A stretch of 64,000 bases of DNA from an uncultured virus (IMG/VR IMGVR_UViG_3300021387_003647) (Duplodnaviria; Heunggongvirae; Uroviricota; Caudoviricetes): the IMG/VR virus record IMGVR_UViG_3300021387_003647. The stretch is one strand, 5' to 3'. Position 1 is the stretch's first letter; every line of letters begins with the position of its first letter. Under the pieces are notes generated by a model that searched no databases, was not told the DNA's origin, and saw nothing but the letters and a program-made list of their open reading frames with translations. The position numbers and the translations under genes are program-made. Shown in pieces: positions 7,945 to 62,439 of the stretch.

Positions 7945-9207
7945 ATGCTGAGAGCAATCAAGATAAGACTATATCCAAACAAGACTCAAGCAGCTTAGTT
8001 CAATAAGTTGCTTGGGTGTTATCGTGTAGTCTATAATCAGTGTCTTAACAGAAAGATTGAATCATATAAGAATAGTCAAATATCAGAGAATCTGACTACA
8101 TTAGGTCATTTCGTTCATCACGAACTGTTGAAAGATGACAACTTCATCTGGCTTAGGGAACAGAACACGAAAGTTCTCAAACAAGCAGTGAAAGATATGC
8201 TTTCCGCATATAAGAACTTCTTTGAACTGCATTCCGGTTTTCCAAAGTTCAAGTCTAAACATGATAACAAACAATCTTGTAGATTTGAAAAACAAGCAAT
8301 TTCTAAGTGCAACGTATATACAGACTATAGAATTTCGCTTGCAAATATAAAGAACGTTAAGTTCAGATGCAGCAGGAAATATGCTGAATATCTTCAGAAA
8401 CACAGAGACTGCATCAGGCAGGCGACACTGAAGCGTCTGCCTTGCGGAGAGTATTATCTCTCAATCTTAGTTGACGGCTGTCTGACTCATCAAGTCAGAG
8501 AAACTAACTCTGCTATCGGTATCGACTTAGGAGTCAAAGATTTTGTTATAACAAGTGAAGGTGAAGTCTTTGATAATCTTCACTTCAAAAAGTTAGAACT
8601 GAATAAAATAAAGAAGTTGCAGAAGCAACTATCAAGAAAACAGAAAGGAAGCAACAACAGAAACAAAGCAAGAATCAGACTTGCCAAGTTATATAAGAAA
8701 ATAGATGATAGAAAACAATACTATCTTCACGAAGTAAGTAATTCGCTTATTGACGAAAACCAAGTCATTTGCATGGAGAATCTGAATGTGAGAGGTATGT
8801 CTAAGAACCATAAGTTAGCAGAGAGCATATTAGAGATGAACTTCGGAGAGTTCAGACGTATGCTTGAGTATAAAGCGAAGTGGTATAATAGACGAATAGT
8901 ATTCGTTGACAGATTCTATCCGTCAAGTAAGACTTGCAATCATTGCGGTTACATAAACAGGCAGTTGACATTGAAAGACAGAGAATGGGTTTGCCCGCAG
9001 TGCGGGCAAACAATCAGCCGAGACTACAATGCTGCTTGTAATATACTTGACGAAAGTTTAAGAATAATAGGGTGCAGTACACCCGAATCTAAGCTTGTGG
9101 AGAACCCAACTGTGGATGAACCAACTGGAAACAGTTCGCTAAAAAGCAGTGGCTCTGTGAAGCAAGAAGTCAATAAAGCACAATGTTCAACTATGTGCAA
9201 GTTTTGA
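7945..9207 (+). CDS. tnpB: TnpB RNA-guided nuclease (IS200/IS605-type, no tnpA nearby), 420 aa, TAG at 7996
   Basis: MLRAIKIRLYPNKTQAA(Q)FNKLLGCYR; RuvC GIDLG / ICMENL / RDYNAA; CNHC..CPQC zinc finger. Confidence 0.93.
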
Positions 9208-9278
9208 CGTACTGTACTTCCAAAAATTTTCTTTTTTCATAATGAATCTTTAATTAGTTAATATTAAAATGTATAGTG

Positions 9279-9352
9279 TGAGACCGGCGGGACTCGAACC
9301 CGCGACCTATTCCTTCGGAGGGAATCGTTCTAATCCACTGAACTACGGTCCC
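9279..9352 (-). tRNA. tRNA-Arg(CCG)
   Basis: GGGACCG/CGGTCTC acceptor stem, ATTCC-CTCCGAA-GGAAT anticodon arm, GGTTCGAGTCC T-arm; CCA not encoded. Confidence 0.93.
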
Positions 9353-28800: not shown

Positions 28801-31121
28801 TCTAAGTCTGTATATTCAATATAAGATACGGCTCTGTCTTTTGCTGTATCTGAGAAGAAAATGCCGTCTGACTCATAGTCATTGTCCATAAACACATCAG
28901 AACCAGCCAACTCACCCATTGCTTTCTTTAAAGTCAGGAGATAAGAACTGTCACTTATCTTCTCATTACGAGTATAGTGTATGTCGTACTTATTGTTTTT
29001 CTTCGTCAGATAAACTTTCCAGATTTTCGGGTCTTCGTGAATATTAGGAGCAGCGATATGCTGGAACCACACATTCTGATGCGTGGAGACAATACCGAGT
29101 GTATCATCGTTATATGACACAACTCTCACAAATGAATTAAAACGAAGCAACGCAGCACGTATTCTTTCCAGTTGAGTCTTTACATCTGCTACCTGCTGAC
29201 TGTCGTCTGCTGTTTGCGTATAGAAACCGATACGATAGAATTCGGTTTCCGGTTTCACTTTGTCGTCATCCGGGTCACTATGTGTAGAGAAATCTGTGTT
29301 ATTAGTCGATATATACGGAGATATAAGATTGTCTGCCGATACCAACCGACTGTCATTCGTGCCGATAAGTTCCAGACAGATATTCTTCTCTGTGCCGTCT
29401 TCATTGATGTTCAAAGCAATGAAACGCAGATGTTCACCGTAATGGACTGGTTCAGTGAAGTGCAGAGTAATGAAATTCTTGTCATTATCTTTCCACTTCA
29501 TCTTCTCCGACTGAATATTAACGATATTCACATCGGGATTGTCCACAACATATGATTTAATGAAACCCTGGACATCTTTCTCATCTTTCACACGAGCAGC
29601 ATCGTTGTTTGTTGTCATAAAGAATATCTTATCCTTGAAATCGTTCAAGTTAAAGATATTATCCAGAACATTCCTGTCAGATATTTCATTATCATCAACA
29701 TCATACTTATGTTGTACATTACTGTCATCTGTAATAATGCAACTATAATTCAGGAAATCGTTCTCAGTCAGATAGAGTCCGAAATAACGATGCATCGTAA
29801 ACTCATCCGTTTCCGGATCATTGTCATTGAACATAAACTCCAGGTTCAGGATGTACGGATACAAGATATTATTGCGCTCGTAACCGTTAATGATAAAGTT
29901 ATCGAAGTTTTCCTGGACTGCTTCTCCAGAGTTCAACACACGGTTGGCAAAATACGAAGACTCGATTTTGTTCGTGATGATGCCGCGAGCAACATCGATT
30001 CCTCGCCATGAATTGTTTCCCTGACGATAATTGTTCTCTGCGCCTGCTTTAGCGGTTGCTTCCGTTACTTTCTCTGAGTTCTGTTCAATGAACTGCATAT
30101 AGCACGAACCGTGCAGAAACTCAGAAATGGAGTTGTTATAATTCCGGATATACTGTCCGATACTTGTATAACTGCGCAAGTCGAATATCTTGACAACAGT
30201 AGAATCCATTAACAGAGTTTCTATTGCCTGCATGTCATTGACATCCGTCGACTGGTATGTCTCAGTATTGTAAATATTCTCAGAACGGAATATACAGAAG
30301 AAATCTGGATTGTTCTTACCCAGATGCAATGGAGCGAGAATCTTCATATTCTCCGGATACAGTTCGTCTGTATTCGTCTCTGCACCGTATTCATAGTCAG
30401 TGATGTACTGTTGATCGTAATTGTTATAATACTTATGTGGGTTCAGCGAATTGTCGGGAGTCTTGAAGAGTTCACTTTGCGGCAGACTACTGAATACAGT
30501 CATCACATCGTGCGGATAGTTTCCGTCACTCGATATGGGATATTTCCGGTAGTTCCGGGAATTCAGAATACTCGATGCCTTGAAAGTATCAAGATACAAG
30601 TTGTAGTCTGAATCAACAACCAGTTTGATATTACCCGTCAGTTTCGGATTCGTCCGGACTAGCATAAACGTATTCATCTTGCCGTTCAACTGGTTTGCTT
30701 CATACGTAGCCGGATATATCTTCTGAATGTCAGAGTCAGATACATAGACTTTCAATGGAGTTGCCTGGTTGAAAGCCGTTGATGAGTCATCAGCAAACAG
30801 ACTGACAGTAAACATACCGGTAGAAAACTCTCCTGCTTTCGGGTCGATGCGAAGCAGGAAGATAAACGGCCAGGCCGTAGAAATCATATCAGGACTATTA
30901 TCGTTGGTACGATTTGTCTTATATCGTATACTATTAATGTATAGTCCGTTCTGAATATAAACAGAGAACGGGTCATCAGACTGACTATAGTCTATGTGTA
31001 AAGAAATTTTCGAAGCATCACTCTAAGACAAGCCGTAAAGACTGGCAACATTGAGCAGCAGTGTACTCTTCTCGGGTGTGATGTTCGCAATGAACTTTCT
31101 GTTTGTTGAAATATCTGACAT
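25887..31121 (-). CDS. Large putative virion protein, 1744 aa (N-terminus extended through TAG at 31023)
   Basis: MSDISTNRKF...GLS(Q)SDASK in frame with the 1666-aa ORF; ATAAATA at 31149-31155. Confidence 0.8.
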
Positions 31122-31173
31122 TGTATAGTTCGTTCTTGAATTCTGCTTTATTTATTACGCAAAATAAAGAAAC

Positions 31174-31629
31174 TCATTCAACCGGTTTTACTTTTGCTTC
31201 TGTCCAAGATGGATTGTTGCAGAGATTGAACCCGAATATTTCATTTACTTCCAATACAGTGCCGTCTCTGTCAACTTCTCCAGCCATTGATGCCGCTACT
31301 CCCATCTCATTAGTCTGAGCAACTATAGTCTGTGCAACTTTTCCCCTCGGAGTATCTAACAACTGAATCTTGCCGAACAATTTACCGGTTTCTTCATCAA
31401 AATTGAATTCAGTAATCTTATGAGAAATATCAGCAATATTCTCGTTTGGATGACACGGTGCACCGTAATAGTATCTGTCTTGGTCATCACCCAAATAACC
31501 GAATGCTTTTCCGTCAGCAACTTTCTTCTGGTAGTCAGCAATAGCATTCTGCATAATACTACTATCGTATGTGCGTCCGTTACTGTTCTTCACTCCGCAG
31601 CACATAAATGTTCCTTCGAGTTCCATCAT
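31174..31629 (-). CDS. T4 gp21-like prohead core protease homolog, 151 aa
   Basis: KNSNGRTY, HP..ISHKI, GKIQLLDTPRGK, NPS motifs; Ser motif degenerate (GVAASMAG). Confidence 0.75.
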   Translation of the reverse strand: MMELEGTFMCCGVKNSNGRTYDSSIMQNAIADYQKKVADGKAFGYLGDDQDRYYYGAPCHPNENIADISHKITEFNFDEETGKLFGKIQLLDTPRGKVAQTIVAQTNEMGVAASMAGEVDRDGTVLEVNEIFGFNLCNNPSWTEAKVKPVE

Positions 31630-31736
31630 TGTTTACTTTCTATTTCGTTTCTGATTCGTTCGTACTCTTTACGGTTTCTCTGTTGGTCAAACCAAGCATT
31701 ATCTCTTTCTATTTCTTCTTTCGTATATTCGGGATT
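31626..31736 (-). pseudogene. Orphaned 3' remnant of a gene interrupted by the mini tnpB element
   Basis: NPEYTKEE...ESKQ* ends in an ATGA overlap with the protease start but has no start codon of its own. Confidence 0.55.
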
Positions 31737-31737
31737 A

Positions 31738-32002
31738 TTGTACTATTTTCATAAATTTATAAATTCTAATCAAATCTATAAATTAAACTACTCATTTCGT
31801 GCTCTGTCTGTTCTTCGGATTTTTAAATCCCCGAACATTCAGAACACATGGTGATACAACGTCACCTCTATCCAGTAAACTGACTAAGTCAGTATCCTGT
31901 ATTACATTACGGAGAAACTGATTATTCTTGCTCATATACTATTTATCATAGATTTTTACAAAGTTGACTCATTATATTTTATTTACTAACTTAAATACAT
32001 TC
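31738..32002 (-). mobile_element. Non-autonomous, internally deleted tnpB element (265 bp)
   Basis: Both ends nearly identical to 33259-34762 and 47464-48974; in-frame deletion junction at 31908/31909 gives a 47-aa mini-ORF (31792-31935). Confidence 0.88.
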
Positions 32003-32253
32003 CTGCGCTTCGGATGTTTGTCTATCCACGCATCAGAATGAATCCAAATACAATCATCTCCGGGATTCTTTCCGGGAATACATCTTTCTAAAGAATATCC
32101 AAGTGTCTTTTTATATACATTTAACAATATCCCCAAATTAGAAGAAGAATCAATCACACTCTTCGCCAACTCTTCAGACGGTTTCTCATCATTCAACCCA
32201 GTCGGTTCGAATAATGATTCCATCATTTTACTATAATCCGGTTTATTTTCCAT
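31972..32253 (-). CDS. Hypothetical protein truncated by the mini element
   Basis: Last residues NVFKLVNKI* come from the element's left end. Confidence 0.6.
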   Translation of the reverse strand: MENKPDYSKMMESLFEPTGLNDEKPSEELAKSVIDSSSNLGILLNVYKKTLGYSLERCIPGKNPGDDCIWIHSDAWIDKHPKRRNVFKLVNKI

Positions 32254-32719
32254 CTTGTTGTTTTCCTTCAAACTTTTCTTTTAAACGCAGATAGTTAGCA
32301 TACTCTCGCTCTTCTTCTTTGCGAGCATGTTCTGCCTTGATACGCTTCACTTCTTCATCAGAGAGATGATAGGGTCCCATATCGATGAGCATCTGGAGCT
32401 ATAAGTCGAATGATACCTTTCCGTCCGGACTGACATAAGAATGATAGACTTCCAATGAATCGTTATAAACTTTCTGAGACTGAATCCAGTTGTCAGTCAA
32501 CTTCATCTCATCAGTATTATCTTCTTTATACTCCATACCGACACAGACGAATGACTTGTCAGTAAACAAAATCAAGAACATCTGTTCACTATGGTCACCG
32601 CGATCGACAAATCCTACTTTGTCAACTACTTTACCGGCCCACTTCTTGCCGTCTCTGTTGTCATAATACGACCAGTCCACATCGTGCAGTCGTAATTGTT
32701 TGTAACCTTCTATCTTCAT
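32243..32719 (-). CDS. Hypothetical protein, 158 aa (TAG at 32399 read through)
   Basis: FDL(Q)LQMLIDMG...EREYANYLRLKEKFEGK to TAA at 32243. Confidence 0.75.
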
Positions 32720-32726
32720 ATGCTTA

Positions 32727-33272
32727 TCATTTATAATTATTTTCTGCCAAGAAAGAAATCTGAATAGGTTCTTTCATTTCAATACCCTGGTTCTTCGCTT
32801 CTGCTTCCACCATTTTGTTAATCCAGCATTCATAATGCTTGTAGATACGTTGGCGAAGACAGTAATAGTCATAGTCTTTGACGATGCTGCCTGCATCTGG
32901 ACTGTTCAACTCCCAGTCCGGGAAGAAACTCTCAGGAACACAAGCAACTTCAATAAAACGCAAACGAAGATAACGCAGCAGTTCTTTCTCTTCATCAGTC
33001 AAATCAACCGGTTTTTGTTCTTTCGGTTTATTCGGAACAATGAACTTCACATTCGTTTCGTATATGTTATCAGAGAAACGATTAATAACGAAAGCATCCT
33101 CGGTCTGACGAATCAGATTATACGGACGAATCAGTGTCTCTATATAAGAAATGTAATAATGTCCGTCACTATACCAATCTTCTGTAATCGGATTTCCTTC
33201 AGCATCTGCAATACGAGCAGAACTGAAATAGCCATATATCAGGAAGTTGCGAATATGATTGTACATTTTCAT
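32727..33272 (-). CDS. Hypothetical protein, 181 aa; start codon lies in the tnpB element right end
   Basis: ATGAAAATGTACAA is shared element-end sequence. Confidence 0.7.
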   Translation of the reverse strand: MKMYNHIRNFLIYGYFSSARIADAEGNPITEDWYSDGHYYISYIETLIRPYNLIRQTEDAFVINRFSDNIYETNVKFIVPNKPKEQKPVDLTDEEKELLRYLRLRFIEVACVPESFFPDWELNSPDAGSIVKDYDYYCLRQRIYKHYECWINKMVEAEAKNQGIEMKEPIQISFLAENNYK

Positions 33273-34762
33273 AAAATTTATAAATCTAATTGATTCTATA
33301 AATTATACTACTAATTTTGTGCTCTGCCTATTCTACGGATTTTTAAATCCCCGAATATTCAGAACACTTGGTGATACAACGTCACCTCTATTCAGTAATC
33401 TGCTCAGAGCAGAATCCTGTATTACGTTTGCTTTACGTAAGATTCCGACTGCACCGTTGCAGTCGGCATTCATCAATTTTCCAGTTGATGATTTGAACAG
33501 ACCACGCTTCGTTCTCTTTCCTAAGTAAGAATCGTGATGTTCCATAACTTCTCCAGCCAAGTGGTCACACTTAGATGTGTAACTTTCTTCTACTTCTATG
33601 AATTCTATCCCAACTTCTTCAAGTTTATACTTCAACTTTGAAATTAGTTCAGAATGTGGAATTGAACAAAATAGACGATTGTTCTATTTGTTCATATCTG
33701 CATTCTGCTTCCAGAATTCATTATGACCGACGACTACTCTACCTATACAATTCTTTAAACAATAATCTCTTATCATACTGCTTACATTATGAATATAGTT
33801 GAATTTGTAGTTATCATAGTCGAAGAGAATTCTATTCATTCTCCGTGAAAGTTTCACTTGTTTTAATAACCCGTCTTTACGAGAAACTTTAGTCAGTTCT
33901 CTGTTCTTTGAAATCAATACGCAAGACTATAGATGAGAAATTGTGTCATTTGTTTCGTTGATTCTTTGTTTCAGTTCGCTACTGCGAACTATGAAAGAAT
34001 CTTCTTTGTCTAACCCGAATGTAACACAAGTCAACAGATTCTTGACTCCCAAGTCAATACCCAATGCTTTATCTTTTGAAACAACTATCTTCAATTTAAC
34101 TTTATTCTCTCTTAAATCATCAATATACTTCAGATTCTAATCGTATATGAACGTAATCTTGAATTTAGAGTTATTTACATACTTTATCTTTATCATTACA
34201 ATCCAATCTTTCTTTAAAACACTTGGTATTTGAATCTTATAACTAGAACATGGTAGTGTTATCTTATCAGAATCTTTTCCTCTGAATCTGGTCTTGTCTA
34301 TTGTGATTATATTGTGTATTTTCTTTCTGTATTTGTATTTAGGCATCTAAGGTTCACTTGTGTATTTCTCTGGATGGTTTCTGTAGTCTTTCTTTGCATT
34401 AATCCAACTGAACCAATTATTATATGCCTAACTTATACACTCTTTCTTTACATTAATATCTAATTTAGAATTTCGAAATGAATCAGTTGGGTTAACTAAA
34501 TCAAACAAACCAAACTTTGTTGGATATTTCGGAATTTCAGACCAATTTAAATCTCTGCATCTGAAATATTCTTGACGAAGGAAATATAGTCCCTAATCAT
34601 AGAGCGAAACAGAATCTACGGTCATACTGTTTAACCGTTCATCGTAATTAACGAACGTGTGAACAGAACGGAGAAACTGATTATTCTTACTCATATACTA
34701 TTTATGAAAGAATTTTCACAAAGTTGACTCATTATATTTTATTTACTAACTTAAATACATTC
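33259..34762 (-). mobile_element. tnpB-only element, copy A
   Basis: Ends shared with two other loci; exact boundaries uncertain by a few nt. Confidence 0.85.
33303..34694 (-). CDS. tnpB: TnpB, 463 aa, 7 in-frame TAG (34593, 34428, 34347, 34137, 33927, 33684, 33333)
   Basis: SLYD(Q)GLYFLRQ; GIDLGVKNL; VEESYTSK; NADCNGA; all fragments in one frame. Confidence 0.9.
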
Positions 34763-34835
34763 TACTAATTGTACTACGTAATTTCAAAAAAGTTTTTCGT
34801 GCGGAAATTAAATGCTTGTTTGAGGAAATCCAGAA

Positions 34836-34864
34836 TAGACTTCAGGGAGAATCCGATGTACAAT
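34836..34864 (+). promoter_or_regulatory. Class II promoter TAGACT-N17-TACAAT
   Basis: Exact 17-bp spacer upstream of the 34940 gene. Confidence 0.65.
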
Positions 34865-34939
34865 TTACAGAACGATAAATTTTTGTAGTTATGACAGTTC
34901 ACAGAAGAAAAATTGAAGAAAAATAACAAAGATACTATT

Positions 34940-47065: not shown

Positions 47066-47478
47066 TGTTTTCTTCGTTCGTAAAATTCTTCTTTTGCTTT
47101 CTCAAATATTTCTTCCCAGAGTTCTTTATCCTTGTGATATTGCTCAAATGCTTTTTCGAGGACTTTTTCTACTTCATCAACAGTCCCGTCAATGAAGTGT
47201 GCTACATTCTTCTTATAATATTCGTCCCACACATACAGAACACAGAATTCTGTCTTTGGTCGGACTACTGCCGGCCAGTCATCATCGTATTTTGACATCT
47301 GTTCGAACTTAATACATCTACTGATGTCCGATAGTTCGAAATGAGTATCACTTGACAGAGACGGACGATATGTTTCTCCGTCTGATGTCCCACTTGTAAG
47401 ATTCCACTCAGGCAATATGACGCTTGCGTGAAAATCCGAGAACATATATGGTTTACTGTAACGTTGTACTATTTTCAT
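47062..47478 (-). CDS. Hypothetical protein, 138 aa; start codon lies in the tnpB element right end
   Basis: MKIVQ is encoded by the shared ATGAAAATAGTACAA. Confidence 0.7.
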   Translation of the reverse strand: MKIVQRYSKPYMFSDFHASVILPEWNLTSGTSDGETYRPSLSSDTHFELSDISRCIKFEQMSKYDDDWPAVVRPKTEFCVLYVWDEYYKKNVAHFIDGTVDEVEKVLEKAFEQYHKDKELWEEIFEKAKEEFYERRKQ

Positions 47479-48974
47479 AAAATTTATAAATTCTAATTAA
47501 ATCTATAAATTATACTACTCATTTCGTGCTCTGTCTGTTCTACGGATTTTTAAATCCTCGAACATTCAGAACACATGGTGATACAACGTCACCTCTATCC
47601 AGTAAACTGACCAAGTCAGTATTCTGTATTACATTTGCTTTTCGCAATATCCCGACTGCACCGTTGCAGTCGGCATTCAACAATTTTCCAATTGATGATT
47701 TGAATAGACCACGTTTTGTTCTCTTTCCTAAGTATGAATCGTGATGTTCCATCACTTCTCCAGCCAAGTGGTCACACTTCGAAGTGTAACTCTCTTCCAC
47801 TTCAATGAATTCTATTCCGGCTTCTTCAAGTTTATATTTCAACTTAAATATAAATTCAGAATGTGGAATTGAACAGAATAATCGATTGTTTTCTTTTCCA
47901 ATATTCGATTCATTCTTCCAGAATTCATTATGACCTATAATAACTTTACCTATACCATTCTCTAAGCAATAATCTCTTATCATACTGCTCACATTATGAA
48001 TATAGTTGAATTTATAATTATTATAGTTGAAGAGAATTCTATTCATTCTCCTTGATAGTTTCACTTGTTTTAATAACCCATCTTTACGAGAAACTTTAAT
48101 TAGTTCTTTGTTTTTCGATGTCAAGATACAAGACTATAGATAAGCCATTGAGTTATTTGTCTCATTGATTTTTTGTTTCAATTCGCTGCCGCGAATGATG
48201 AAAGAATCTTCTTTGTCTAAACCAAACGTCACACAAGTCACTAAATTTTTGACTCCTAAATCGATTCCCAAAGTTTTATCTTTTAAAACAACTGGTTGTG
48301 ATTTGACTTTATTTTCTCTTAACTCATCAATATATTTTAAATTCTAATCATATATAAATGTAATCTTGAACTTATAATCATTTATAAATCTGATTTTAAG
48401 CATTACAATCCATTCTTTCTTTAGATTAGACGGAATTGTAATTTCATAATTCGTTCGAGGAATACCGATTTTATTTTCATTAGATACTTTCTTTCGAAAT
48501 CTTGTTTTATCTATTGAGACTATATTATGTGTTTTCTTTCTATATTTGTATTTAGGCATTTTGGGTTCACCTGTGTATTTTTCTGGGTGAACTCTGTAGT
48601 CTTTCTTTGTCTTAATCCAACCAAACCAGTTATCATATGCTTGACTAATGCATTGTTTCTTCACATTAATATCTAATTTAGAATTCTGAAATGCATTAGT
48701 TGGGTTAACTAAATCAAACAAATCAAATTTTGATGGATATTTCGGGATTTCAGACCAATTTAAATCTCTGCATCTGAAATATTCTTGACGAAGGAAATAC
48801 AGTCCCTAATCATAGAGCGAAACAGAATCTACGGTCATATCGTTTAACCGCTCATCGTAATTGACAAACGTGTGAACTGAACGGAGAAACTGATTATTCT
48901 TGCTCATATACTATTTATCATAGAATTTCACAAAGTTGAATCATTATATTTTATTTACTAACTTAAATATATTC
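47464..48974 (-). mobile_element. tnpB-only element, copy B
   Basis: Highly similar to 33259-34762 along its length. Confidence 0.85.
47519..48907 (-). CDS. tnpB: TnpB, 462 aa, 4 in-frame TAG (48806, 48344, 48134, 47540)
   Basis: Same RuvC motifs as copy A; TGA at 47519. Confidence 0.9.
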
Positions 48975-49042
48975 ATCGAATAAAGAAGAGCAGTTCTGAA
49001 TCTCTCAAAAACTGCTCTTCTTCTTTGTGTTGTACGTTTCGT

Positions 49043-49582
49043 TTAACCGTTTCCGGCGGGAATGTCATCACCACCAGAGTTGTTCGAACCGGTTGATGTG
49101 TCAACAGTTCCAGTCGATGTGTCAACGGTCTGATGCTCTGTGTTCTCAGAATCTCCGGCTGCTTCCTCTGTAGTCTGCTTGTCTTTGTCTTTCTTCGAAG
49201 CCCATACAAGTGTTGCTCCGTGAACACCACTTAAGATTTCTTCAGATGGCTTGTAATTTACATTCGTGTGTAAATCTTCCAACTTCAAATCTTCTGGGTC
49301 AGTCTTCCACTTGCTTCGAACTGTCGGATAGATCTTCCCCAACGGACCCAAATCGATAATCTTACCGTTTTGAAGGCCTCGTTTAGCAGCATCTAAGGCT
49401 AATTCTAGATTCATCTTCACTTCTGCTTTATGAGCAGATGTGTTTAAAGATGCTTCTTCAGCCAGGTCATCGAGTTTCATCGTACCGTTTGTCAATGCAC
49501 GGCAAATGTAACCGAGAGTCTTGACTCCATTCACAATTTGATAGAGTCTTTGTCTAACAATTGAAAACTTTGACTTTTCCAT
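49043..49582 (-). CDS. HU-related DNA-binding protein (Bacteroidota extended HU type) with acidic/Gly tail
   Basis: LDDLAEE...KAEVK...LQNGKIIDLGPLGKIYPT...VNYKPS. Confidence 0.8.
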   Translation of the reverse strand: MEKSKFSIVRQRLYQIVNGVKTLGYICRALTNGTMKLDDLAEEASLNTSAHKAEVKMNLELALDAAKRGLQNGKIIDLGPLGKIYPTVRSKWKTDPEDLKLEDLHTNVNYKPSEEILSGVHGATLVWASKKDKDKQTTEEAAGDSENTEHQTVDTSTGTVDTSTGSNNSGGDDIPAGNG

Positions 49583-49762
49583 TTTCAAATATATTTTATT
49601 AATTTTATAAAAGCAACTTTTTTAAAAAGTTGCACAACTTTTTGAAAAAGTTGCACAAATCTGTTTTTTATGTGTTCATAATTATTTATCATCGACTTAT
49701 TGAAAAAACGTTCAGTAGAACGTTAAAATTTTTAAAAAATTTGCATTTTTCTTGGAAAAAGT

Positions 49763-60351: not shown

Positions 60352-62439
60352 ATGCTACAAAAAGAGTTTATTAATAAAATTAAAGAATTATACGGAGATT
60401 TATATGAATTCATAAATCTTCCAGAAATCGTATGTAATAATACAAAACTTGAAGTGTATTGCAAGAAACATAATTGTACGTTCAAAACAGTTTGTTATCA
60501 ATTATTAGAAAAGAAACGTTGTCCAGAATGTATTATCGATGAAAATACTGAACGATTCATTGAACGAGCGAAAGCAATACACGGCGATAAGTTCGATTAT
60601 TCTAAAACGAGATGTATCAGAACCGATGATAAAATCGAAATAATATGCAAAGAACACGGTTCATTCTTTCAACTTCAGTCTAATCATCTAAAGGGTCAAG
60701 GTTGTCCGTATTGCTCTGGTAATGCAAGAATGACAAAGGATGAATTCTTAAAAAGAGCACACGAATTATTCGGTGACACTTATGATTATTCTAAAATCAA
60801 AGACTCTGATGTTAAGAATAGAAATTCTATAGTAACTATTATTTGTAGAATACACGGAGAGTTTCAGCAATCAGTACATAATCATTTAAGAGCAGATATC
60901 GGTTGTCCAAAGTGTGCAGGAAATGCTCGTTTAACAGTAGAATCTTTTATAGAAAAAGCACGAAAAGTCCATGGTGATAAGTATGATTATTCAAAAGTAA
61001 CCGAAATACATAACAATCATCATAAAGTTACAATTATTTGCCCAGTGCATGGAGAATTCCAGCAAACACCACAAAATCATTTAAACGGAACTGGTTGTCC
61101 GAGATGCATTGGTTTATATACAACATTCGATGAATTCCTAAAAACGGCTAAAGAAGTATATGGAGACAAATATGATTATTCTCTTGCGAAAGAAGATTTT
61201 GTGAATATGTCTAAACCGATAAGAGTGATTTGTCCAACACATAGAATATTCGAAATTGTTCCAACTGTTCATGTGCGTTCAAGATGTGGATGTCCCAAAT
61301 GTTCTCATATGAGTACAGAAGAATTTATAGAAAAAGCAAAAGAAGTACATGGTGATAAGTATGACTATTCAATTACTGAATATATAAATTCTTCTACTAA
61401 AATAGCGATTATATGTAAAGAACATGGTGTATTTTATCAATTTCCGTATTCTCATCTTAAAGGATTTGGATGCAGATTGTGTAATATGAAATATCCCATA
61501 AGAACAACAGAAGACTTTATCAGAATAGCATCGGAAGTTCATAATAATTTCTATGATTATAGTAAAACAATATATATAAATACAAAAACTAAAGTAATAA
61601 TAACTTGTCCACAACATGGTGATTTTGAATAGATGGCATATGAACATTTAAATGGACATCGATGCCCAAAATGTTCAGGGAATGTATTTATACCGTTTGA
61701 AGAATTCATTGAAAGAGCAAGAAAGATACACGGTGACAAATATGATTATTCTTTAGCAAGATATGATTACAAAAACAGCAACACGAAAGTTAGAATTATT
61801 TGTCCAAAACATGGTATATTTGAAATTTCTCCAAGTTCACATATAAATGCACAATGCGGGTGTCCGAGATGTTCTCGTCGTTTAGTGACTACTGAAGATT
61901 TTATAGAAAGAGCACGAGAGGTTCACGGAGATAAGTATGATTATTCATTATCTGAATATACGGGCAATAACAACAAATTGATAATCATTTGTCCAAAACA
62001 CGGACCATTCGAACAAATACCACATAATCATCTTCGTGGTCATGGATGTTCTCGTTGCCGTTCTTTGCAATCAAAGATATTGTTGACAGTATTAAATGCA
62101 TTAGAAGAAAACAATATATCGTATTCTGTAGAAAAGATATTCGATTGGCTGAAAGACAAGAGTTATTTGAAACTTGATGTATATCTTCCTGATTACAATA
62201 TTGCTATTGAATGTTAGGGTTATCAACATTTTAGTCCAATACCGATGTACGATAAAGACAATGATAACTTCGAGAAACGAACAAGAAGAGACAAAATAAA
62301 ATATGAGTTATGCAAAGAGCATAATATTCCCGTATTATATTATGCAGAGAAAGAATATGTTTCAGATTACTTTGATAAGATATATACAGATGTCAATGAG
62401 ATAATTGAATATATTTTAAATACAAAAGAGCACTCTTAA
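60352..62439 (+). CDS. Free-standing homing-endonuclease-like protein, 695 aa: 9 DUF723-like zinc-ribbon repeats plus a Vsr/PD-(D/E)xK-like domain; TAG at 61630 and 62215
   Basis: HGDKYDYS...CPxHG.F.Q....HL.G.GCPxC repeats; LDVY...IAIEC(Q)GYQHF; three ORFs in one frame. Confidence 0.87.

Follow-up and report, generated by a model that had tools for sequence, protein, structure and literature searches.

A protein-less derivative of a TnpB-only element, with a predicted omega-RNA-like fold, in a TAG-recoded phage

TnpB nucleases are described as using an omega-RNA that overlaps the 3′ end of their own gene and takes its guide from the right flank of the element, with the TAM on the left and trimming of the nuclease's own transcript (PMC8612924, PMC10278001), and a scaffold of 116 nt is given as sufficient (PMC10097598). 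The closest described relatives of the locus studied here are the PATE-like IS200/IS605 elements of Geobacillus stearothermophilus, which, as presented by Meers et al., keep both element ends and an omega-RNA region without a mobility or cleavage protein and are presumed to depend on TnpB and a transposase in trans; use of the omega-RNAs of such protein-less elements in trans has already been proposed there (PMC10055086). One review lists homing by TnpB as shown in bacteria and between plasmids and treats homing between phages as a prediction (PMC13565253), and TnpB genes in phages have been reported (PMC12607003; bioRxiv 10.64898/2026.02.14.705889). Our literature search found no paper joining TnpB with stop-codon-recoded phages.

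Here we describe a mini element in a phage genome fragment of 64,000 nt (the whole stretch of DNA that was analysed, hereafter the window; Table 1). The mini derives by internal deletion from a TnpB-only element of 1.5 kb, two full copies of which, A and B, lie at distances of 1.3 and 15.5 kb. It has both element ends but neither a transposase nor a nuclease gene. The parent element occurs in large TAG-recoded phages from the ruminant gut. We think it rather probable that the mini is a non-autonomous, PATE/MITE-like element that still encodes a predicted omega-RNA with its guide and that homes through TnpB supplied in trans. Non-autonomous TnpB derivatives bearing an omega-RNA are an already known kind of element, and what is new is the setting: a phage-restricted TnpB lineage, TAG-gated nucleases, a promoter-like motif at the gene start, and a series of minis with an empty allele. 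The mini shares with the PATE-like elements the lack of mobility and cleavage proteins, the two ends and the omega-RNA region, along with a presumed dependence on TnpB and transposase in trans. Unlike them, it is virus-borne, has a phage promoter-like motif together with a short in-frame ORF, and derives from a TAG-recoded nuclease gene. Further differences are that the window yielded no TnpA partner, that a clear hairpin is lacking at the left end, and that related phages provide a documented natural empty allele.

Other known systems are instructive as well. Copies A and B resemble TnpB-only (IS1341-like) elements and ISDra2 in their OrfB_IS605 and TNB domains and in the expected positions of guide (right flank) and TAM (left flank), whereas their similarity to solved relatives is weak and their fold has no Rfam family; with the patterns used, the family turned up in viral and metagenome data alone. 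The free-standing seg and mob homing endonuclease genes of T4-like phages show the same presence/absence polymorphism at a precise site in related phages, and, as for these genes and for the non-restorative homing described for plasmid TnpB (PMC13565253), spread would be expected to proceed, on co-infection, by a break in the empty allele followed by repair off the occupied genome. The mini differs from the T4-like genes in that its target would be recognized by RNA and that the nuclease is absent, and it would be a parasite of nuclease-bearing copies. Occupied and empty alleles of one site, as expected of a homing element, were both found in related genomes. IStrons likewise place a TnpB-family element within a coding sequence, but the mini shows no group I intron signature (Rfam gave no intron family with its gathering cut-offs, nor over 31600-34900 when E was relaxed to 10), and the split gene is thus truncated rather than restored by splicing.

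All relevant features (mini, copies A and B, split gene) lie on the minus strand. When 31650-32100 was compared with the window by blastn, 31734-31908 matched the 3′ ends of the full copies (47464-47635 in B, 95.9%; 33255-33428 in A, 87.0%) and 31909-32002 matched their 5′ ends (48881-48974 in B, 95.7%; 34668-34762 in A, 94.7%), which places the deletion junction between 31909 and 31908; copy B is the closest relative of the mini. In the alignment, the left end is followed by ATGAGCAAGAATAATCAGTTTCTCCGT (9 codons) and then by AATGTAATACAG..., the 3′ end of tnpB. Both analyses agree with the original prediction, made by a model from the letters alone, that the left end, ATAAATA (31940-31946, inside GATAAATA) and nine codons are fused in frame to the 3′ end of tnpB and the right end. 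Its layout of a deletion derivative therefore stands, but not its exact limits, since the AAT at both junctions seen in the empty-site joint leaves the ends of the mini and the start of each flank ambiguous by 1-3 nt. Aligned with the full copies, the fused ORF has lost its sole TAG, replaced by AAG, and contains no other; the 47-aa peptide had no match in Pfam.

Table 1. Positions of the mini element, its parts, the full copies and the split gene in the window
Feature	Position	Strand	Details and evidence
Mini element	31737..32001	-	262-nt insert plus AAT on both sides; blastn, alignment, empty-site joint
Left end, non-coding, common to A and B	31936..32001	-	blastn, alignment
GATAAATA, phage promoter-like motif, 4 nt upstream of ATG	31940..31947	-	motif counts
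Fused ORF (protein P0133), 47 codons: 9 N-terminal and 38 C-terminal TnpB codons	31792..31935	-	
Deletion junction, CTCCGT joined to AATGTA	31908..31909	-	no microhomology visible
Outer stem and hairpin 1 (CUGACU/AGUCAG)	31870..31902	-	compensatory changes in 8/12 pairs, 8 sequences
Hairpin 2, GGTGA-N7-TCACC, also encoding RGDVVSP	31850..31866	-	minimum-free-energy fold
Composite hairpin 3: GTGTTCTG/CAGAGCAC, TGTTC/GAACA, GGATT/AATCC	31799..31847	-	fold and compensatory changes
AT-rich hairpin by the right end	31754..31784	-	fold and compensatory changes; weak as DNA
Candidate TAM GGAAT, 5′ of the left end	31999..32003	-	five left flanks
Putative guide/target AATCCCGAATATACGAAAGA, coding NPEYTKE of the split gene	31717..31736	-	inferred from TnpB biology
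Split gene, 5′ part (P0140): 84 codons, then 8 codons and stop from the left end	31972..32253	-	
Split gene, stranded 3′ part: 36 codons, TGA overlapping the prohead protease ATG	31626..31736	-	
Full copy A; TnpB ORF 34694..33303, 463 aa, 7 in-frame TAG	33258..34761	-	
Full copy B; TnpB ORF 48907..47519, 462 aa, 4 in-frame TAG	47463..48973	-	

Part of 31300-32400 is present in 20 runs from 12 studies (labelled ruminant or other animal gut), and contigs were mapped on 30500-33200 from the DNA runs X3 and X4 and the RNA-library runs X18 and X20. In one contig each of X3 (1,342 nt), X4 (42,862 nt) and X18 (245 nt), from three different studies, 31736 is joined directly to 31999, leaving out 262 nt, with 3 letters assignable to either side; the minus-strand sequence of the empty site is CGCAGG-AAT-AATCCCG. 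Through this joint the upstream ORF runs on for 36 codons (NPEYTKEEIERDNAWFDQQRNRKEYERIRNEIESKQ) to a TGA that overlaps the prohead protease ATG. The protein database holds both forms of this gene: an intact one (P0141, 120 aa, 12 members) and a split one (P0140, 93 aa, 4 members), the latter ending in NVFKLVNKI, residues that the left end encodes. The match of P0141 to the window is 83.5% for residues 1-84 and 100% for residues 84-120, the two segments lying immediately on either side of the mini. The empty joints and the two protein forms together identify the mini as an insertion polymorphism that truncates a small gene beside the prohead protease gene, and empty sites in relatives, which the original prediction had suggested looking for, are thus documented. 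We rejected a split of the prohead protease gene itself, the flank being out of frame with the protease and the upstream gene being the one that is split. Mini-bearing and empty alleles also differ at about 30 positions within 115 nt (32041..32155), 40-155 nt from the left end, and are nearly identical on the other flank of the mini; this patch may be a co-conversion tract or simply a variable region.

The part of tnpB that the mini retains appears omega-RNA-like, its existence as an RNA being a prediction from covariation and folding. In the parent copies, the covarying fold overlaps the 3′ end of tnpB, with helices reaching about 165 nt into the gene, and stops at the right end, as judged from the alignments. 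The minimum-free-energy fold of the mini as RNA (-51 kcal/mol, z -3.45; none of 200 shuffles as good) has five elements, namely the outer stem, hairpin 1, hairpin 2 (GGTGA-N7-TCACC), hairpin 3 with its three tiers, and the AT-rich hairpin, which lies 17 nt before the end. It contains the hairpins that had been picked out from the letters and, in addition, the CUGACU/AGUCAG hairpin with its outer stem, which had been missed; the compensatory change noted earlier in copy A is likewise real (G-C to A-U, columns 73/99). The invariance of hairpin 2 is uninformative, because the loci were found with its own 17-mer. Among the four close copies, 97.8% of cells are paired and 4 pairs are changed on both sides. 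Adding four more distant phage copies gives eight sequences with compensatory changes in 8 pairs, all in the outer stem and hairpin 1, and a covariation score of 0.429, compared with at most 0.151 in slid controls and with none of 500 shuffles as high. Across 17 phage relatives, in an alignment that was fitted to the covariance model and hence leans towards it, compensatory changes occur in 30 of 48 pairs, and 89.9% of cells are paired (32-42% in slid controls); the check by covariance model proposed at the outset thus favours conserved pairing. The G-U pairs of the fold occur on the sense (minus) strand. Between the mini and copy B there are 8 differences in 173 columns, none of them in the 96 paired ones. 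In the copy at locus L058 (see below), 3 pairs of hairpin 3 are broken, including columns 73/99, and we count this against the reading that we favour. A covariance model built from the four copies (R1) matched only the three known copies over the 64 kb; among the 3′ ends of tnpB relatives, it gave end-to-end matches up to the clade of 33% identity with E up to 0.012 (L087 weakest) and no match in L106, L108 and L109, the most distant loci searched. Rfam has no family for the fold, and inspection by eye for a pseudoknot saw no conserved pairing of the right end's terminal bases with the 5′ region.

At the ends of the element, the left flanks of five copies finish in GGAAT, AGAAT, TGAAT, TAAAT and AGAAT, and the right ends read ACAAT (mini, A, L058) or ACAAC (B). 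Together with the empty site, these letters fit either a 3-bp duplication or an insertion 3′ of (G/A)AAT as in IS200/IS605. The right end ACAAT is close to the candidate TAM (G/A)AAT, which makes discrimination of self from non-self doubtful and counts against the reading that we favour. The putative guide occurs once in the window, and its 20-mer is absent from IMG/VR. When folded as single-stranded DNA, the left end formed no hairpin of significance (-1.7 to -4.4 kcal/mol, z +0.82 to -0.47) and the right end only a weak one (-4.2 kcal/mol, z -1.16), so the pair of subterminal DNA hairpins expected of a PATE was not seen. The 75 ORFs of the window include no recognized Y1 or serine transposase, and one of four related phage records (G002) contains a Y1_Tnp match. 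This match, on a 164-kb phage contig (the record of locus L060), lies at 71763..72124 (-) in two frames, covers profile positions 2-93 and 88-121, and is about 15 kb from a TnpB relative of 38% identity.

The TnpB ORFs of copies A and B are open only if TAG is read through (as Gln). Translated in this way, both match PF01385 (OrfB_IS605) and PF07282 (Cas12f1-like TNB) above curated cut-offs, and D216, E371/E372 and D413, which we take to be the RuvC D-E-D triad (in GIDLG, EESYTSK and NADCNG), are invariant in 12 sequences (A, B and 10 database relatives). The assignment of TAG to Gln agrees with the closest relative, P0001 (89% identity), which has Q at 6 of the 7 TAGs of A and at all 4 of B; P0001 has no internal stop, and the TAGs in A and B thus look recently acquired from CAG. 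TAG accounts for 7 of 463 codons in A and 4 of 462 in B, compared with 17 of 16,956 in 48 other ORFs of the window, and for 7/15, 4/14 and 17/599, respectively, of TAG, CAG and CAA taken together. This load of the parent genes fits a suppressor-dependent, possibly late, translation; no suppressor tRNA was found in the 64-kb window. With the patterns used, the TnpB family was found at 26 viral-contig loci (33-52% identity) and in 814 metagenome-protein matches, and not among 185,579 species genomes; a single-protein scan of IMG/VR gave no match, nor did the mini locus in the GenBank phage collection. Similarity of the protein to solved structures is weak, the best PDB match being Cas12X (E 2.7e-06). 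A third, unrelated TnpB lies at 7945..9207 (+) (420 aa, one TAG; HTH_OrfB_IS605, OrfB_IS605 and TNB domains) and adjoins tRNA-Arg(CCG) at 9278..9352 (-), the sole tRNA gene of the window.

The motif ahead of these genes is enriched in the window: GATAAATA occurs 11 times against 3.9 expected, a count reached by none of 100 shuffles, and 17 of 20 ATAAATA sites lie at most 37 nt upstream of an ATG-started ORF (at least 40 codons) on the same strand, two of these 17 ORFs being inside larger genes and probably spurious. The spacing to the ORF start is either 4 nt or 25-33 nt. The motif stands upstream of two giant ORFs, the third TnpB (GATAAATA, 4 nt before ATG), copy A (CATAAATA), copy B and the mini, and the left ends of distant relatives of the element have a motif of the same kind. 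It looks like the phage's own promoter, in which case the sites spaced by 4 nt would give leaderless mRNAs. Where the original prediction spoke of a retained promoter, a promoter-like motif is indeed kept, while its being a promoter, and a late one, is something we infer from position and counts. ATAAATA occurs mostly as tGATAAATAa (e.g. at 153, 7934, 19433, 31155, 45738 and 58448). One ORF with GATAAATA upstream, at 60352..62439 (+), encodes 695 aa with two TAG and about ten DUF723/treble-clef zinc-finger repeats.

Minis are not confined to this site. Scans with 17-mers gave 77 loci, mostly chance matches, among which L058 alone was close and L060/L021, L009, L061/L040, L068/L029 and L020 were distant relatives. 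L058, on an IMG/VR phage contig (G001), is an independent mini of 366 nt with a different junction, in which 21 N-terminal codons are fused in frame to 63 C-terminal codons; in a scan with an 18-mer of the left end, the one real match out of 12 was on the same contig. Identity between the window and G001 is 82-90% for the element but about 28% for the prohead protease proteins, and almost nothing else is common at the DNA level. This far greater likeness of the element indicates its transfer among phages that are only distantly related.

Searching proteins with the mini ORF of L058 produced 12 hits; cluster members brought the set to 18 short proteins, among which there are six distinct junction classes. 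The window's own junction (9 codons + NVIQD) is found in four protein variants (P0130, P0133 from the window, P0134 and P0135) on at least six contigs. The other classes join 21 codons to SSTGK (4 proteins), 13 codons to EHHKSY (1 protein), 6 codons to IQD (1 protein), MINS, read from an ATG in the left end, to KRTKRG (3 proteins, including P0126), and, in a sister subfamily, 32 codons to TSKCDH (1 protein); three further proteins are ORFs reading into 5′-truncated copies, and one is a probable fragment of a TAG-interrupted full gene. Judged by these junctions, minis have arisen repeatedly, and the case in which the mini would be a one-off deletion is ruled out by the six classes and the independent L058 copy; the additional minis that the original prediction had asked about thus exist. 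P0126 is probably a second mini on this same genome, outside the window, its longest contig having the length (194,032) that is also the longest for the window's own ORF. Because the protein search is limited to TnpB-frame ORFs of 46 aa or more, a preference for in-frame fusion or for retention of the whole fold cannot be shown from it. In P0129, P0138 and P0128, outside ORFs run straight into 5′-truncated copies that have only the 3′ part of tnpB, and by sequence these are right ends on their own, the left end being absent. P0129 combines a signal peptide with a repeat that is presumably dockerin-like.

The mapped runs also bear on copy number. The element has a depth of about 97-190, the flanks 7 and 31, and the loose ends show several other flanks, which indicates that the element family is multi-copy in those samples. 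The RNA libraries offer weak hints, their contigs being short and without strand, ends or level, with DNA carry-over possible: in X20 (from the same sample as the best DNA run), two 115-nt contigs cover 31756-31870 only, one of which keeps the mini-specific letter at 31786, and a contig of X18 covers 31737-31846 plus 30 nt of another flank. Parts of the stretch left uncovered in these runs were not counted as evidence, and neither were small word shares in the runs outside the four that were mapped.

We propose that the mini is probably kept and spread by TnpB acting in trans, given the 3′ overlap of the omega-RNA, the right-flank guide, the left-flank TAM and the self-trimming known from TnpB biology. 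Under this proposal, the mini locus would be transcribed from GATAAATA or through read-through of the surrounding operon, and TnpB from copy B or A, translated only on TAG suppression, would trim the transcript to the scaffold plus about 16-20 nt of the right flank (AATCCCGAATATACG...). On co-infection with a relative carrying the intact gene, the complex would recognize a GGAAT-like motif followed by AATCCCGAATATACG... and cut there, and recombinational repair templated by the mini-bearing genome would then insert a copy of the mini, which amounts to homing. A protein-less element could in this way be kept and spread at the cost of nuclease-bearing copies; its first arrival at new, non-homologous sites would need another activity. 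Further observations do not sit easily with this proposal. The insertion truncates a gene, which is a cost rather than an obvious benefit; the reading frame is kept in both minis seen at the DNA level, as might be expected if a peptide or a translation-dependent effect mattered rather than the RNA; and neither a significant left-end hairpin nor a transposase among the 75 ORFs was found to explain arrival at new sites.

The many junctions and the 5′-truncated solo pieces are also what ongoing decay would predict. Random deletions in the middle of TnpB elements could leave harmless or linked remnants whose RNA, if made at all, is idle, and the disruption of a gene by the mini, as well as the bias that the search method lends to the apparent preference for keeping the fold, would agree with such an origin. 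Against it, none of the 8 differences between mini and B falls in a paired column (chance about 0.002 if random), the same junction persists in four variants on at least six contigs, and a mini is present in a phage with only distantly related genes of its own; inert decay is therefore possible, although we doubt it. A different account accepts mobility and assigns it entirely to a transposase in trans, the hairpins being single-stranded DNA signals for Y1 TnpA or sites for another recombinase. A conserved short motif at the insertion, the AAT at both junctions, the precise empty site, copies at unrelated sites and the Y1_Tnp match in a related phage contig would all be expected from it. Yet the ends of IS200/IS605 elements need far less than about 165 nt of tnpB, and the covarying helices reach that far into the gene with G-U pairs on the sense strand; together with the lack of a transposase among the 75 ORFs, of a significant left-end hairpin and of more than a weak right-end hairpin as DNA, this makes a transposase-only element unlikely.

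The original prediction had gone further and proposed a dedicated multi-guide system, that is, a domesticated weapon in which two nucleases and several guide loci act against competing phages much as a CRISPR array does. Three guides do lie beside two TAG-gated nuclease genes within 17 kb, and among related phages the mini site is often empty (12 members against 4). Each guide, though, is no more than the flank of an insertion, the guides are neither arrayed nor renewed, the harm done by the mini to a phage gene is that of an ordinary insertion, and the population of junction types, with its many deletion forms and solo 3′ pieces, resembles transposon decay or non-autonomous copies. We accordingly retain from that prediction the deletion derivative with a promoter-like motif and an omega-RNA-like fold and set aside the dedicated system, which we judge improbable. 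It is more doubtful still that the 47-aa peptide is itself functional, for example as a C-terminal TnpB fragment that modulates TnpB or downstream translation. Both DNA-level minis (window and L058) are in frame and the mini ORF has lost its only TAG, but two of two would be in frame by chance in 1 of 9 cases, the peptide has no Pfam match, and the C-terminal domain of ISDra2 TnpB is described as disordered and dispensable (PMC10097598). The reading we prefer is a non-autonomous element kept and spread by TnpB in trans. A bolder extension of it, that protein-less cassettes borrow the TAG-gated, phage-restricted TnpB in trans and drive into, or destroy, element-free alleles of co-infecting jumbo phages, seems to us rather unlikely at present. 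If true, it would amount to a natural multi-locus, RNA-guided gene drive among viruses, in which one effector and dispersed guide loci stand between a transposon and a CRISPR array.

Irrespective of the outcome, the locus is a natural test bed, combining a guide cassette without a nuclease, two candidate nucleases, a candidate TAM, and an empty allele that circulates in the same habitat as the mini, and RNA-guided spread between phages becomes directly testable here. A TnpB family can be adapted to a virus, as is shown by the promoter-like motif next to its start codon and by recoded stops that are enriched more than ten-fold, and the natural deletion series roughly maps what must be kept. Should the RNA prove active in trans, the scaffold of about 165 nt and the nuclease of 460 aa would form a new and divergent OMEGA pair.

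The full copies also touch their neighbours. The right end of copy A (33258..33272) supplies the ATG that is the only start for a downstream ORF of 181 aa (32727..33272, -). A homologue of this ORF, P0142 (281 aa, 73% identity, family unknown), has about 100 additional N-terminal residues that are found nowhere in the window, so copy A marks a breakpoint within that gene and gives it a new start. A label of 'portal' for this ORF was rejected, the match covering only 32 residues and falling below the cut-off. Copy B is inserted just past a strong terminator-like hairpin, AAGAAGAGCAGTT...AACTGCTCTTCTT then TATT (48975..49042, -), which comes after an HU-HIG gene (49043..49588), and the same ATG in its right end is likewise in frame with the downstream ORF.
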